This document shows positions 58,569-63,990 of a DNA stretch of 64,000 nucleotides, piece after piece (position 1 is the stretch's first letter; every line of letters starts with the position of its first letter). Made by a program: the position numbers and the translations under genes. Under the pieces are notes generated by a model. It worked only from the letters and a program-made list of their open reading frames with translations, was not told where the DNA came from and ran no database searches. Location: IMG/VR virus record IMGVR_UViG_3300025818_000017. One strand, given 5' to 3'. This DNA comes from a virus.

Positions 58569-59825
58569 CTAATCCTGATGATCTGGATAATAATCAGAAC
58601 TATGATTGGTAGGGCCGAAGATTTTTTCTGACTTCTCGTAAACGTCTCTACAGTTTTCCACTAATTCTTCCAGAACAATATCTTCTAACTTTTCAAAGAA
58701 TATCTTGCGATTATGCTCAAGTACAGGTTTCATGTCTTCGTAGATTCCGTGAAGTTGAGATATAGAATATGAACACAATGTTCGTATTTCTTTCGCAATC
58801 ATATCAAGACGCACATTATGATCAGGTTCTTCATCGTAGCTTTCATCGATCCATTGATCGAAGGTTCTGAACCCGTATCTCTTTAAGAATGCCAATGACC
58901 CCGGCGCCGAAGCAAGAATAAATGGGCGCTGGCATACGATAGGTTTGAATATTTTTTCGGTAAGATGTACGAAATTTTCATAGTAAACTGTTTCGTTAAC
59001 TACGTGAAGGAAAGATTGGCCCATTGTGTGCCAGTCGATTTCGTAGCTAGTGTTTGGTATAACATCAAACTCATTCTTATCAAATCGAAGAGGTAACACA
59101 TCTAGTATATTCTCTTTAATATGAACGCGCTGCGGATAGGTAAGAAAACAGTATCTTTCTGATAGTATTTCGTGAATAGTGTTTTCGCTGTCGGGGCATT
59201 TAAATGAACAGGACACTTGTCCTTGGTCTAATAAATCGTACTCTGCCAACTTGCTAGTGATATACAGTCTGTAGGATCGTTTTTTATCTATGATGCGAGA
59301 CATTGAGTTGAACTTATAAGAAAAGGTATCGAATGGTTCGTAATGCATATACTGCCTATACCATTGGTATGCCAAATATCCTTGGAAGAAAAAGAAGACG
59401 ATATTAAAGTTATCATATTCTTTCGCTACTGCGGCTATCAAGTCTTTATTTTCAAAATCAGACACGAGTGCATTCAAGGATACTTTGTACGCGATTGTGT
59501 CCATTGGTTTTTTGTGAATAGCATACAAGTCTGGATGAATGGCGTTTAATACAGCGTAGGTGTCATTATACAGGCAGTTAGGCTCATTCGCCGCGAATAT
59601 AAATCTTTCACGATGAGTGTGATTTTCTAATATTTTATTTTTTTTACTAGCGGGGCTTAACTCCGATAAGTACGATAAATGCGACGGGTAACTTTTCATC
59701 TTTGTGTCGTTATACGGTATACCTGGGTCTGGATAATGATACATACCATCTTGGTTAGTGAACCCATTTTTATATAGATATTCCATAACGCCTATGGTAT
59801 AATTGGTTACGTCATTGTAAGACAT
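58569..59825 (-). CDS. Putative glycosyltransferase-like protein, paralog 3
   Basis: FLHVVNETVYY..LTEKIFKPIVCQRPFIL..GFRTFDQWIDESYD. Confidence 0.6.
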   Translation of the reverse strand: MSYNDVTNYTIGVMEYLYKNGFTNQDGMYHYPDPGIPYNDTKMKSYPSHLSYLSELSPASKKNKILENHTHRERFIFAANEPNCLYNDTYAVLNAIHPDLYAIHKKPMDTIAYKVSLNALVSDFENKDLIAAVAKEYDNFNIVFFFFQGYLAYQWYRQYMHYEPFDTFSYKFNSMSRIIDKKRSYRLYITSKLAEYDLLDQGQVSCSFKCPDSENTIHEILSERYCFLTYPQRVHIKENILDVLPLRFDKNEFDVIPNTSYEIDWHTMGQSFLHVVNETVYYENFVHLTEKIFKPIVCQRPFILASAPGSLAFLKRYGFRTFDQWIDESYDEEPDHNVRLDMIAKEIRTLCSYSISQLHGIYEDMKPVLEHNRKIFFEKLEDIVLEELVENCRDVYEKSEKIFGPTNHSSDYYPDHQD

Positions 59826-59838
59826 AAAGGAGACTCCA

Positions 59839-60927
59839 TTGAGAATTGCGTTTATCGGTGTTGGGAAACTTGGACTTCCCTGTGCGGAAGAGATTGCTAA
59901 AAAAGGTCATACTGTTACTGGTTATGATATTTCTGGTTTTGAATCAGGACTTGTAGAAAAGAAAGATTCTATCAAAGACCTCATTCATTATGGTTATCAA
60001 GATGATAACTGCCCAGACATTGTATTTATTGCTGTTCCAACACCGCACGAAAAAGAATATGACGGACGTTACCCGACGGCGCATTTAGAACCAAAAGACT
60101 TTGACTATTCTATCGTAAAAGAAGTTCTAACCGAAGTAGAAAGATATGCCAACAATACGACACTGGTTGTATTGATTTCAACCGTTCTGCCCGGCACAGT
60201 TCGTAGAGAGTTTATTGATCTGATGCCACGAATGAAACATCGTTTCGTCTATAATCCATATCTTATTGCTATGGGTACTGTGGGTTGGGATATGATCAAT
60301 CCAGAAATGGTAATGATTGGTACAAAGGACGGTGATGAAACCACTGACGCAAAAGAACTGATCGACTTCTATAAGACGATTATGGAAAATGATCCACGCT
60401 ATATCGTTGGTACTTGGGACGAATGTGAATGTATCAAAATCTTCTATAATACATTCATTTCAACGAAAGTGTCGCTGGTGAACATGATTCAAGATGTTGC
60501 TGAACGACAAGGTAATATTGACGTTGATGTGGTTACAAAAGCCTTGGCGGATTCGACGCATCGCATTATGTCTCCTATGTATATGAAGGCTGGTATGGGC
60601 GATGGTGGAGCTTGTGTAAAACCTGATTTCAAAGTCACTGTAAATGATGAAGTAGTATCAATAAGCGATCTTTATGAAAAGTTTGATGAAAACGAATACT
60701 ATATTGTTGATTCTATGAACTGGTCAGGAACCAATACGGACCAAAAGAAAATAGCAGAAGTAACTAAACGAGAATATACGGGAAAACTATACACATTTAC
60801 TACAAGTAGCGGAAAGAGTATATCCGTAACAGAAGATCATCTTATCCCCATTGAGCGAGACAGAAAACGAATCATTATACCAGCAAAAGAAGTAAAAAAC
60901 ACAGATAAAATGTTTGTTTTTGGGTGA
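59839..60927 (+). CDS. UDP-glucose/GDP-mannose dehydrogenase N-part fused to split intein N-fragment
   Basis: GVGKLG Rossmann motif, VPTP, STVLPGT, ECIKIFYN, GMGDGGA then intein Cys1; TTG start with AAGGAG SD. Confidence 0.92.
   Translation: MRIAFIGVGKLGLPCAEEIAKKGHTVTGYDISGFESGLVEKKDSIKDLIHYGYQDDNCPDIVFIAVPTPHEKEYDGRYPTAHLEPKDFDYSIVKEVLTEVERYANNTTLVVLISTVLPGTVRREFIDLMPRMKHRFVYNPYLIAMGTVGWDMINPEMVMIGTKDGDETTDAKELIDFYKTIMENDPRYIVGTWDECECIKIFYNTFISTKVSLVNMIQDVAERQGNIDVDVVTKALADSTHRIMSPMYMKAGMGDGGACVKPDFKVTVNDEVVSISDLYEKFDENEYYIVDSMNWSGTNTDQKKIAEVTKREYTGKLYTFTTSSGKSISVTEDHLIPIERDRKRIIIPAKEVKNTDKMFVFG
60613..60924 (+). mobile_element. Split intein N-fragment (IntN, 104 aa)
   Basis: Block A CVKPDFKV, block B SVTEDHLIP (TxxH), ends in stop codon after AKEVKNTDKMFVFG. 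Confidence 0.9.
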
Positions 60928-60953
60928 TAGCGGGGCTTGTTATGTATTTTTTG

Positions 60954-60961
60954 TATAAATA
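60954..60961 (+). promoter_or_regulatory. T4-type late promoter for the endonuclease and IntC-fusion gene
   Basis: Perfect TATAAATA followed by CAGGAG SD. Confidence 0.75.
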
Positions 60962-60981
60962 CTTTATACAGGAGATACAAA

Positions 60982-61827
60982 ATGGTTATAGAAGAATACA
61001 GGAGAGATAAAACTGAAAAGTGTAAAAAGTCATTATCTGGTAAACGAACAATAAAGGAGAAGATGGTTCTTATTGAGTGTGACGAATGTGGTGAAAAACA
61101 TAACAGAACACTTGGTCATTATAATAAGATGAAAAAACAGGAACTATTTGATAAAGATTATTGTAATGTTTGCTGGCGTCCCATACTCAATAGTAGACCA
61201 GAAAAGATTGAAAAAATGAGAGAAGGTCTTAAAAAAGTATGGAGTGATCCTAAAAAACGCCAAGAAATGTCTGTGACTATGAAACAACATTGTGAAGAAA
61301 CTGGAAGAATGATAGGAGATAATAATCCTATGAAAAATCCAGATACGCAAAAGAGAGTCAGTGAAACACGGTCAGCAAATATGACTCCCGAAGAACGACA
61401 AAAGTATTCAAACGCAACGAAGAAAGCGTGGGAAGAAGGCAAGTATATAGATAAAAAAACAACACAGTGTAAATGGTATGATTATGTTGATAAAAATGGC
61501 AGAATACATAAATGTCAAGGAACTTGGGAGTTGGCATATGCTGAATATCTTGATAACAATGGCATTAGGTTCAAATCGCATTTTGGAAAAATCCCTTATG
61601 TTGATGACGAGGGTGTAAGTCATAACTATTATCCAGATTTTTATCTAATAGATACAAATGAATATGTTGATGTTAAGGCAACATATTGGTTAGCAAGGCA
61701 AAAACGAAAGTTTGAGTTACTTAAAGAACAATCAACAGAAAAGATACTCATTTTAACAGAAAACGAGTTAACAAAGAAAGGTGTAATGATTTATGGCAAC
61801 GGAAAAGATAGTAGATATTCAAGTTGA
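60982..61827 (+). CDS. Free-standing homing endonuclease (PD-(D/E)XK type with Zn finger and NUMOD-like repeats)
   Basis: CDECG..CNVC, basic NPMKNP..K.SE repeats, GTWE, YYPDFYL..EYVDVK. Confidence 0.75.
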   Translation: MVIEEYRRDKTEKCKKSLSGKRTIKEKMVLIECDECGEKHNRTLGHYNKMKKQELFDKDYCNVCWRPILNSRPEKIEKMREGLKKVWSDPKKRQEMSVTMKQHCEETGRMIGDNNPMKNPDTQKRVSETRSANMTPEERQKYSNATKKAWEEGKYIDKKTTQCKWYDYVDKNGRIHKCQGTWELAYAEYLDNNGIRFKSHFGKIPYVDDEGVSHNYYPDFYLIDTNEYVDVKATYWLARQKRKFELLKEQSTEKILILTENELTKKGVMIYGNGKDSRYSS

Positions 61828-61930
61828 AGAATATACAGGCGATGTGTATAATCTTGAAGTAGAACCTAACCACGAAGAAAAAGACGATCAGTTTTATCTG
61901 TGTGCTGATACAGGTATTGTAATCCATAAC
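61793..61930 (+). mobile_element. Split intein C-fragment (IntC, 46 aa)
   Basis: Block F DVYNLEVE and block G IVIHN followed by Cys+1. Confidence 0.9.
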
Positions 61931-62326
61931 TGCCATCCAAGAGACAACATTGCCCTACGATGGATGGCAGATAACCTTGATCTTGGCTATGACCTATTTG
62001 ATGCCATTATGAATGCCAGAGAGAAACAAGCAAAAAATATGGCAGAAGCATTAATGAAATATAAACTTCCTGTTGTTATACTTGGTAAATCGTACAAACC
62101 AGGTGTGGAATATGAAGATGGAAGTTCAAGCATTCTTGTGGGTTCTTATGTTGAGCATCTTGGCGGCGAGCTACATTACGATAAAATACTTGATGCACCT
62201 GCGGTGTATCTACTTGCTCACCCGCTCGACAGATTTGACCAAGGAGCAGAAGACTCAGTCGTTGTTGATCCTTGGAGACAAGTCTGGACTCAACACAAGG
62301 TAAAATATTACGGAAAGACCCGATGA
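61793..62326 (+). CDS. IntC fused to the C-part of the nucleotide-sugar dehydrogenase
   Basis: HN-CHPRDNIAL (catalytic CxPxD) and LGKSYKP..EDGSSS. Confidence 0.92.
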   Translation: MATEKIVDIQVEEYTGDVYNLEVEPNHEEKDDQFYLCADTGIVIHNCHPRDNIALRWMADNLDLGYDLFDAIMNAREKQAKNMAEALMKYKLPVVILGKSYKPGVEYEDGSSSILVGSYVEHLGGELHYDKILDAPAVYLLAHPLDRFDQGAEDSVVVDPWRQVWTQHKVKYYGKTR

Positions 62327-63054
62327 TTGTAATCGGTGCTGGTTGTAGTCTTATTGAAGGCGCGGAACTGGAAAGCCAAGAACAAACTTGGCCTTGTAAA
62401 CTTGCTCGTCGGCACAATATGTCTTATGTAAACGCTGGGCATACTGGTGTCGGTAATAGGTACATTGCTCATAAGGTTATCAATGAAGTTTCTGCCCTTG
62501 CCGAAGAAGACTTATTTGTAATCGTTCAATGGTCTTATCTTTCCCGTTACGACTATCTGTTATCGTTTGATACACAAGAGCGCAACAGTCCTTGGTACAC
62601 AATAACACCCGCTCATCTAAATCTGGGCGACGAAACTGTTGCTAAATGTTTCGGTAAAGACTATATTGAGCGTATTCATGAGTTTGGTGTTACTGATTGG
62701 GTAGAAGCACACTATAAGTTAGTTGGTGATGCTAATGAAACTGATAGTAGCCTTGCGGAAATACTGATGGTCCAAGAGTTTCTAAATAATAGAAACATTC
62801 CGTATATCTTTACTACGGCTGAAAACTGGAATGAATATCGTGCATTCCAAAACCCAACACACTCTAAGGCATATTACGATGCTATTGATTGGTATAAGTT
62901 TAGATGGTTTCCACACGACCTTGGGCCAACTGGATTTGTGTATTGGGCAAATGCTAATGATTTTCCGAAGGCACCTATGGGTCATCCATTGGAACCAGCA
63001 CACGAAGCAGCAGCAGATATTATGGAGAAGTATTTTGTCCAAGAAATTAACTGA
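62323..63054 (+). CDS. SGNH/GDSL hydrolase-like protein, paralog 3
   Basis: AGCSLIEG, GVGN, GHP. Confidence 0.6.
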   Translation: MIVIGAGCSLIEGAELESQEQTWPCKLARRHNMSYVNAGHTGVGNRYIAHKVINEVSALAEEDLFVIVQWSYLSRYDYLLSFDTQERNSPWYTITPAHLNLGDETVAKCFGKDYIERIHEFGVTDWVEAHYKLVGDANETDSSLAEILMVQEFLNNRNIPYIFTTAENWNEYRAFQNPTHSKAYYDAIDWYKFRWFPHDLGPTGFVYWANANDFPKAPMGHPLEPAHEAAADIMEKYFVQEIN

Positions 63055-63340
63055 GGAACAGAAAGAGTTTTGGGATCAACTTACAACAGAACATCCAGAC
63101 AATATAGATACAGAGATAAGTATATACATAAGCGGTATTCAACAGCGTGAAAGTATTGACTATGTACTAAGTGGTCAAGATATCGTGTTTAGTAATCCAC
63201 CCGCACGTGGAGAAGTTGTTCGACTGTTTATGAAGAATGATAGAGTATCTAAGTATTGTGCTGCTGATATTTTAGTTCGACAATTTTACGGTGATGGTCA
63301 ATTTTCCGTTATTAGAATACCAGGAGTTTTAGCATGGTAA
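63035..63340 (+). CDS. Hypothetical beta-rich protein
   Basis: TTG start with GGAG SD; VYISGIQQ..DY.LSG..IVF..PP motif. Confidence 0.5.
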   Translation: MSKKLTEEQKEFWDQLTTEHPDNIDTEISIYISGIQQRESIDYVLSGQDIVFSNPPARGEVVRLFMKNDRVSKYCAADILVRQFYGDGQFSVIRIPGVLAW

Positions 63341-63990
63341 AGATATTAGAAGATTACGAACAACCTTTTGACGCATACTTAGATTTTGAGAAAATGATAA
63401 GTGAGTATACGGGCGCACCTTATGTTGTGCTAACCGATTGCTGTACGCATGCTATGGAACTGTGTATTAGATACTGGGCAAGAGAAAACCAGATTGATCT
63501 TACCCAGCGAAGCGTGGTCTTGCCCCATCGTACATACCTCAGTGTCCCAATGATGATTCATAAGTTAGGTATTACATTAGAAGATTACGAATTGCTGAAC
63601 TGGGATAGCGATGATATGTATCCTATCCGTGGCGTAGTAAACGATAAAGTGTACGATTGCGCTAGGTTATTCAAAGAAGATATGTACATAAAAGGCACAT
63701 ATATGTGTTTGAGCTTTGGTCATCGTAAACCATTACAAATCGGTAACGGTGGAGCTATCTTACTTGATGATGTTGAAGAGTACAATGACTTGAAGCAAAT
63801 GACATATGATGGAAGAGCTATTCATGATTTTGATCCGTGGGTAGATCAAGCCGTATTCAAGGTTGGGTATCACTATAATATGCGTGTTGAGACAACTATT
63901 AGAGGAATGCGTTTATTGCATGATGGTGAGATTGGAAAAGCATTACCATTCTACTATCCAGATTTGAGGGAGATTACTATTGTATTCTAA
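63334..63990 (+). CDS. DegT/DnrJ/EryC1-family PLP aminotransferase-like protein (short)
   Basis: FE..ISEYTGAPYVVLTDCCTHA, DCAR, SFGHRKPLQIGNGG, GYHYNM. Confidence 0.8.
   Translation: MVKILEDYEQPFDAYLDFEKMISEYTGAPYVVLTDCCTHAMELCIRYWARENQIDLTQRSVVLPHRTYLSVPMMIHKLGITLEDYELLNWDSDDMYPIRGVVNDKVYDCARLFKEDMYIKGTYMCLSFGHRKPLQIGNGGAILLDDVEEYNDLKQMTYDGRAIHDFDPWVDQAVFKVGYHYNMRVETTIRGMRLLHDGEIGKALPFYYPDLREITIVF

Follow-up and report, generated by a model that had tools for sequence, protein, structure and literature searches.

How might a phage obtain an active nucleotide-sugar dehydrogenase from a gene that is broken at the codon of its catalytic cysteine? The question is raised by positions 59,839 to 62,326 of a 64,000-nucleotide stretch of virus DNA (IMG/VR record IMGVR_UViG_3300025818_000017), which is hereafter termed, as a whole, the window. 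An earlier note, made from the letters alone, had read these positions as a dehydrogenase gene interrupted by the two halves of a naturally split intein. Homology, splicing residues, purifying selection and relatives of the same architecture bear this out: the locus is very probably a fractured gene, whose class 1 intein halves would trans-splice two polypeptides into a dehydrogenase of 389 aa, and which carries a homing-type endonuclease gene between its parts. What characterizes such genes is present here, namely two adjacent open reading frames (ORFs) on the same strand, intein halves at the break and an endonuclease ORF between them. The anatomy of the locus, its homology, its insertion point, its conservation and its distribution can all be observed directly.

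The three consecutive ORFs lie on the plus strand. ORF A (59839-60927, 362 aa) starts at a TTG six bases behind an AAGGAG and encodes an N-extein of 258 aa that ends in GMGDGGA (59839-60612), followed by the N-terminal intein fragment (IntN; 60613-60927, 104 aa plus a stop codon at 60925-60927). IntN begins CVKPD, with Cys1 at 60613-60615, contains the block B motif TEDH and closes with a basic stretch, ERDRKRIIIPAKEVK. The free-standing endonuclease gene (60982-61827, 281 aa) lies between ORF A and ORF C and starts at an ATG behind an AGGAG, a start also placed by an independent gene caller; the ORF list has this middle frame from a TTG at 60937. Its end overlaps by 35 nt the beginning of ORF C (61793-62326, 177 aa), which starts at an ATG behind a GGTG. 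ORF C encodes the C-terminal intein fragment (IntC; 61793-61930, 46 aa), with block F VYNLEV, a conserved DD and block G IVIHN, and then a C-extein of 131 aa plus a stop codon (61931-62326), the first residue of which is the catalytic Cys of CHPRD. ORFs A and C are in different reading frames, each with its own start codon and ribosome-binding site (RBS). The coordinates and lengths proposed earlier (Cys1 at 60613, 104 aa of IntN, 46 aa of IntC, 258 + 131 = 389 aa of joined exteins) proved exact.

What enzyme would the joined exteins form? ORF A matches the Pfam families UDPG_MGDP_dh_N (PF03721; 73 bits, cut-off 27) and UDPG_MGDP_dh (PF00984; 51.4 bits, cut-off 25.4), both within the N-extein, and PHROG 9148, 'UDP-glucose dehydrogenase', matches both ORF A (profile positions 1-314) and ORF C (261-374). 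Uninterrupted homologues, which the earlier note had suggested looking for, exist in other phages: among phage records, tblastn found them in a marine single-cell virus contig, in Pelagibacter phage HTVC008M and in Synechococcus phage Bellamy, where the gene (gp227) is annotated as UDP-glucose dehydrogenase. The match of the N-fragment stops at its residue 259 and that of the C-fragment begins at its residue 47, on adjacent codons of one gene. In the alignment to Bellamy gp227, which sets the N-extein boundary, the exteins meet at YMKAGMGDGGA/CHPRDNIALRWM (the slash marks the break, here and below), with zero residues lost or doubled. A closer uninterrupted allele, P0153 (385 aa), is 83% identical over the N-extein and has an unbroken junction; its locus, L017, is syntenic with the window, with the same flanking genes. 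Of the 36 nt on each side of the insertion point, 31 and 34 bases are identical between the window and L017, compared with about 76% gene-wide. Inteins are commonly inserted in the most conserved part of the host gene.

The position of the break within the enzyme is equally precise. The best PDB sequence matches of the N-extein are UDP-glucose dehydrogenases (UGDH), and the match ends at residues 274/275 of human UGDH. By sequence alignment, residue 1 of the C-extein corresponds to Cys268 of the Pseudomonas GDP-mannose dehydrogenase (GMD) 1mfz and to Cys276 of human UGDH. These alignments therefore identify the +1 residue as the catalytic nucleophile of the dehydrogenase family. The GGxCxxxD catalytic loop exists solely across the splice junction, GDGGA/CHPRD, and the claim that joining the exteins restores the family motif with the catalytic Cys as +1 residue is supported by the Bellamy and P0153 junctions as well as by the UGDH and GMD alignments. 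The host-gene family comprises more than 8000 clusters, nearly all of them uninterrupted. No NCBIfam model reaches its cut-off (TIGR03026 gives 120 bits against 189.8, for the N-extein alone, and all equivalog models lie far below), which leaves the substrate, e.g., UDP-glucose, unassigned. The C-extein aligns weakly to GMD residues 268-362.

The intein halves retain the residues that class 1 splicing uses. Cys1, directly after GDGGA, is conserved in every relative aligned, and Cys1, TxxH, the terminal HN and Cys+1 are kept in all split and cis relatives aligned, the block B column reading TKDH, TPEH or TPCH against TEDH in the window. Among aligned IntC sequences, the HN of IVIHN/C and the following Cys are invariant. 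The search of IntN against known inteins that had been proposed returned the Pfam family Intein_splicing (ORF A residues 271-359, E 2.4e-7, below the family cut-off) and, by sequence against the PDB, the Mja KlbA intein (E 1.9e-5), 9hth (the Aes123 PolB1 split intein) and PI-PkoII. As a stand-in for the split intein, a contiguous mini-intein relative at the same Cys was modeled (L016, the gene for P0090), from an alignment in which the IntN and IntC of the window were among the rows. The model has a confident HINT fold (predicted local distance difference test, pLDDT, 90.7; predicted template-modeling score, pTM, 0.84), and its sole low-confidence loop, at approximately residues 105-125, coincides with the split point of the window. 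Foldseek aligned this model with the RadA, TvoVMA, Aes123 PolB1, NrdJ-1, DnaE and gp41-1 inteins (template-modeling scores 0.6-0.76), and in these alignments the cis relative, rather than the window halves themselves, is at most 24% identical to solved inteins (gp41-1 15%, NrdJ-1 19%). The net charge of IntC is -10 and that of IntN close to zero, with a basic stretch at the C-terminus (+1 tail). Electrostatic steering may thus contribute to the association of the halves, although from these charges its contribution would not be striking.

What kind of endonuclease lies between the halves? The protein has an N-terminal beta/zinc-ribbon domain (CxxC...CxxC), a helical, NUMOD3-like middle and a C-terminal PD-(D/E)xK nuclease domain; an AlphaFold2 (AF2) model (pLDDT 89) shows a corresponding N-terminal beta domain, helical middle and C-terminal alpha/beta domain. 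Homologues form 62 clusters. In an alignment of 33 members, no variation is seen at E183, Y216-Y217-P218-D219-F220, K232 and K243, and almost none at D230 or at the N-terminal CxxC...CxxC cysteines. VIA-align places residues 163-269 in the restriction-endonuclease fold, with TnsA the best match (Z 9.1), followed by Bax1 (7.3), I-Bth0305I (3r3p; 7.2) and Vsr (6.5); Foldseek returned nothing below E 1e-3 for the same model. A family profile searched against the PDB matched T7 endonuclease I chains 3cae, 1m0d, 1fzr and 2pfj (E 2.9e-8 to 2.5e-6), aligning YYPDF with YTPDF and the D-x-K of VDIK (VDVK in the window) with the E-x-K of VETK. No Vsr or I-Bth0305I (3r3p) chain appeared in this profile search at E up to 10, and Pfam gave no Vsr or DUF559 match. 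Across the 33 members, Pfam recognized DUF7487 in 23, Phage_endo_I in 17, a TnsA-like family in three and NUMOD3 in two, the window's own endonuclease falling below the DUF7487 cut-off (22.5 against 27 bits). By its sequence the protein is a canonical, T7-endonuclease-I-like PD-(D/E)xK nuclease.

Membership of the Vsr-like (EDxHD) family that accompanies some known fractured genes was considered and rejected, as the protein has no EDxHD motif and no conserved catalytic His, and is instead a Lys-bearing PD-(D/E)xK nuclease with profile homology to T7 endonuclease I. A T4-late-promoter-like octamer, TATAAATA, lies on the plus strand at 60954-60961, 20 nt upstream of the endonuclease RBS (AGGAG)/ATG, and is found at the same place in the diverged split allele L003. 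Its position weakly hints at late expression of the endonuclease. Scans of the window for sigma-70-like promoters and terminators gave results at shuffle level.

In two alleles the intein is split but the endonuclease gene is missing. In L007 (6183-6250) and L008 (1265-1330) the IntC gene follows the IntN gene after 59 nt, and in L007 the two remain separate genes, the first closed by a stop codon and the second, beyond the 59-nt spacer, opened by its own ATG in a different frame. After the IntN stop, L007 keeps GTTATGTATTTTT and continues directly with AACAGAAAAAGAG..., giving a spacer of the type GTTATGTATTTTT/AACAGAAAA. The part that begins with AACAGAAAAAGAG matches the end of the window's endonuclease ORF over 14-15 codons, which read LTENELTKKGVMIYG there and LTEKELLEKGVMIYG in L007; in L008, too, this end and the first bases of the spacer are kept. 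The segment absent from L007 and L008 (805 bp) maps to 60946-61755 on the plus strand of the window, where it is flanked by ATTTT microhomologies at 60946-60950 and 61751-61755, boundaries that were read by eye from the alignment. Since the boundary interrupts the final beta-strand of the nuclease core, at codons 257/258, and the C-terminal tail of the endonuclease is conserved across the whole endonuclease family, these alleles would be deletion derivatives and not never-invaded sites. The endonuclease gene has thus probably been lost and the split intein retained. That the split intein persists in these alleles with both halves intact is plain from their sequences.

The same two alleles differ from the window in other respects. 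The IntN of P0003/P0004 (L007 5766-6182) contains an extra insert of 31-35 aa, with two Cys, between blocks A and B, which is absent from the window and L003. P0004 (L008 86-1267) is a mosaic: 150 of the 151 residues aligned in columns 1-160 agree with the L003-type protein, and from column 161 on, IntN included, identity to the L007 type is about 99%. The sequence around the element may have undergone recombination or co-conversion, or the 1.8-kb contig may be an assembly chimera.

How widespread is the split form? IntN was searched against 1.84 billion cluster representatives and gave 82 matches. Twenty-five of these are UGDH-like N-fragments that end in IntN (clusters at 50% identity), a further 23 are short or other proteins that end in IntN, and 11 are UGDH-family proteins that run past IntN, at least six of them full cis-intein proteins. 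With at least 25 clusters at 50% identity, the split form is not rare. The earlier note had mentioned contiguous inteins in hosts of this kind, and cis forms do occur at the same Cys: mini-inteins of 154-167 aa in P0090, P0096, P0148 and P0098, and inteins of 460-471 aa in the full-length UGDH-family proteins P0103 and P0150. The three-gene layout of the window recurs in the diverged phages L003-L006, L009 and L010, and the split form without endonuclease in L007 and L008. A single Cys is seen uninterrupted, with a large cis-intein, with a mini cis-intein, split with an endonuclease gene and split without one. L009 (2426-4492) and L010 (2462-4537) represent a second split clade, in which the break reads GYGGHC/FPKD and an endonuclease of the same family lies between the halves. 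Their C-exteins are only 46-50 aa long, and those of the cis relatives P0090, P0096 and P0148 are equally short; the predicted spliced protein of L009 and L010, of approximately 300 aa, would lack the entire C-terminal nucleotide-sugar-binding domain. A scan of IMG/VR with IntN found a single weak locus, L002 (28% identity), and among 50,697 phage records megablast, run with the locus and with 25 kb of the window, found no relative except for a 182-bp stretch of nrdA, and thus no close kin of the phage.

A related IntN also occurs in a different host protein, P0113 (590 aa), whose N-terminus contains a DIETS motif suggestive, by eye only, of a 3'-5' exonuclease or polymerase. There the IntN continues in frame into a zinc-ribbon and a PD-(D/E)xK endonuclease akin to that of the window (BLASTP E 1e-6 over the YYPDF...VEVK core). 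P0113 would be an IntN and a homing endonuclease fused in one ORF.

What sequence of events would turn these parts into an enzyme? IntN and IntC would associate into a HINT fold, in which class 1 trans-splicing would proceed by an N-S acyl shift at Cys1, trans-thioesterification to Cys+1 and cyclization of the terminal Asn of IntC. GDGGA would thereby be joined to CHPRD, producing the 389-aa enzyme with the +1 Cys as its nucleophile. As the active-site nucleophile is itself the +1 Cys, no active enzyme would be formed without splicing. The endonuclease, probably expressed from its own late promoter, would spread the element to alleles that lack it, its target being an allele without the element or without the endonuclease gene. 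We infer trans-splicing and the timing of expression from sequence, and the activity and target of the endonuclease from where its gene lies.

Is the gene split at all? A break that is apparent only, caused by an assembly artefact or by an RNA intron that houses the endonuclease gene and leaves a contiguous cis-intein once it is spliced out, would suit metagenome-derived data and the habits of T4-like phages, which carry group I introns with endonuclease genes. However, ORF A is identical in four assemblies (ERZ27275036, ERZ27275037, ERZ27275039 and SRR5600317), in which the same endonuclease gene and ORF C follow wherever the contig extends far enough, and diverged copies of the layout are present in four further samples. 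The worry voiced at the outset that the split might be an assembly artefact is answered by this identical layout in at least four independent assemblies and by the diverged copies in others. Searched against Rfam at E up to 1, positions 59500-62700 returned only two chance-level matches, a miRNA and a snoRNA model, and no group I or group II intron. IntN ends in a stop codon, IntC is read in another frame from an RBS and ATG of its own, and the separate genes of L007 show the same break where there is no endonuclease gene to be removed. An apparent split is extremely unlikely. There is also very little probability that the intein pieces act as an affinity pair only, holding the two polypeptides together with no peptide bond, even if unspliced genes-in-pieces do work, e.g., the intein-less split NrdA of phage Aeh1 (PMC2677866, PMC3045599). 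In the window the GGxCxxxD loop itself is interrupted and the nucleophile Cys comes right after IntC, so that without splicing some 150 aa of HINT domain would sit in the active site of the complex. The strict conservation of Cys1, TxxH, HN and Cys+1 would, moreover, be unneeded for docking alone.

Alternatively, the gene could be dead, an endonuclease cassette having invaded a cis-intein allele and left two ORFs as decaying remnants. The host gene is auxiliary and missing in many phages, most alleles of its family are uninterrupted, and no PF03720 domain is detectable in the C-extein, all of which would fit a gene in decay. Against this, Nei-Gojobori counts that compare the window with the diverged split alleles L003 and L007 gave proportions of non-synonymous differences (pN) far below those of synonymous differences (pS), with synonymous sites saturated between lineages: pN is 0.20-0.25 and pS 0.65-0.88 for IntN, the corresponding values for IntC are 0.02-0.16 and 0.56-0.87, and both exteins have a pN/pS range similar to the intein halves. 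IntC is nearly invariant among relatives (pN 0.018 and pS 0.56 relative to L007). These counts indicate that both intein halves are under purifying selection and that neither is drifting. No lineage has lost a catalytic or splicing residue, both halves come with a start codon and RBS of their own, and the split form survives loss of the endonuclease. Bellamy gp227, uninterrupted, is likewise without a strong PF03720 signal, so by this comparison the short C-terminal domain is a trait of the clade. A dead gene is very unlikely.

Trans-splicing of a fractured gene is thus preferred, and several points weigh against it. Splicing, endonuclease activity and expression are predicted from the metagenomic sequence of an uncultured phage. 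The Pfam match to Intein_splicing is below the gathering cut-off for IntN (31.1 against 35.8 bits) and reaches only E 0.15 for IntC, and the charge complementarity of the halves is modest. Saturation of synonymous sites makes the dN/dS values rough. The octamer TATAAATA is not enriched in the window (seven found, 5.1 expected). Finally, the C-terminal UDP-binding domain PF03720 has no Pfam match in ORF C, which makes the substrate, and even full activity, uncertain.

The surroundings of the gene are those of a large uncultured phage, contigs bearing these proteins reaching 181 kb. The window carries replication and nucleotide-metabolism genes, including helicases and NrdA. The fractured gene is flanked by a 418-aa gene on the opposite strand and, downstream, by a DUF6071-like and a DegT-like aminotransferase gene. 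The 418-aa ORF (58569-59825, minus strand) has no Pfam or PHROG match and starts 13 nt from the start of ORF A; a gene of comparable size and position adjoins the dehydrogenase gene in L003, L007 and L017, and the ORF looks like a conserved partner in a sugar cluster. The DUF6071-like gene (62272-63054) is a weak match (E 5.5e-4), and the DegT/DnrJ/EryC1-type aminotransferase-like gene (63334-63990) has only 218 aa, its ORF ending 10 bases before the end of the window. Both would fit a sugar-nucleotide modification cluster, and the Bellamy homologue is surrounded by glycosyltransferases, a carbamoyltransferase and NadE; these neighbors thus place the enzyme in a sugar-modification cluster. In L003 (3648-3923) and L007 (3651-3923) a small T5orf172/MUG113 (GIY-YIG-like) gene is located two genes upstream of the fractured gene and may encode another mobile nuclease.

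What would such a locus add? The chance is a little better than even that it represents an active and undescribed family of split inteins in a sugar-nucleotide enzyme, unrelated in sequence to the split inteins in use and with all its stages preserved. If this is true, the model of gene fracture put forward by Dassa becomes directly testable, and the known split inteins are joined by an orthogonal Cys1/Cys+1 member, the homing endonucleases by a new lineage. Fractured genes, described for proteins of DNA metabolism, would extend to a sugar-nucleotide enzyme of phage auxiliary glycan-modification clusters. Because the enzyme's nucleophile is also the splice-junction residue, splicing could gate its activity absolutely. 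The natural allelic series at one site would allow the order of fracture and of endonuclease gain and loss to be tested. As the closest solved inteins are so distant from the cis relative, the two halves (104 + 46 aa) are a candidate orthogonal trans-splicing pair, and the endonuclease, with its T7-endonuclease-I-type core, could offer a new scaffold for homing endonucleases.

The earlier note had suggested that this may be a new orthogonal split intein; with its many clusters, the form is no rarity. No published split intein in a UDP-sugar dehydrogenase was found, nor an account of such a layout with an endonuclease of this type, a provisional result since literature coverage was incomplete and InBase itself lay outside it. 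No UGDH-type host is named in the host list of Dassa 2009 or in the main text describing the 34-intein panel of Pinto 2020.

How, then, does the locus compare with known systems? The fractured genes described by Dassa in 2009 have as hosts the gp41 helicase, IMPDH, DnaE, NrdA, NrdJ, DNA ligase and terminase, and their endonucleases are GIY-YIG or Vsr-like (PMC2677866), the latter type having later been defined as the EDxHD family, with a His as general base (PMC3239194). As in the window, gp41-1, IMPDH-1, NrdJ-1 and NrdA-2 have an N-part with IntN, an endonuclease ORF and an IntC with C-part on one strand; in both cases the DNA is marine and phage-like, the inteins are of class 1 with Cys1 and Cys+1, and the split falls at the canonical endonuclease-insertion loop. 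The hosts differ, as there is no UDP-sugar dehydrogenase among those of Dassa, and so do the nucleases, GIY-YIG or Vsr-like (EDxHD) there and E...PD...DxK with profile homology to T7 endonuclease I in the window. I-Bth0305I, an EDxHD enzyme, shares with the window's endonuclease a modular build, a C-terminal nuclease of the restriction-endonuclease fold and a tie to fractured genes, but the window has E183, P218-D219 and D230-x-K232 in place of EDxHD. Contiguous inteins, termed 'udp' or UDP-GD, are known from archaeal and a few bacterial UDP-glucose 6-dehydrogenases (PMC4071816, PMC2874743). Their host family is that of the window, and in the metagenome proteins P0103 and P0150 the insertion likewise precedes the catalytic Cys (GGSC/...HN/CFPKD), with an IntN similar to that of the window (E 1.9e-7) and block B ISVTEDH in common. 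Their inteins are contiguous, at 460-471 aa of a size consistent with an embedded endonuclease, whereas that of the window is split and its endonuclease separate.

The cyanobacterial DnaE inteins (Ssp, Npu) are, like that of the window, naturally split, of class 1 and needed by an essential catalytic protein, and they resemble L007 and L008 in having no endonuclease gene. Their halves are far apart in the genome, whereas those of the window are adjacent, and the host protein differs. The DnaE IntN is acidic and its IntC basic; the IntC of the window, in contrast, is strongly acidic. On the sequence comparisons made here, the layout of the window is of a known kind, and it is the host enzyme and the endonuclease lineage that appear as additions to the fractured genes.

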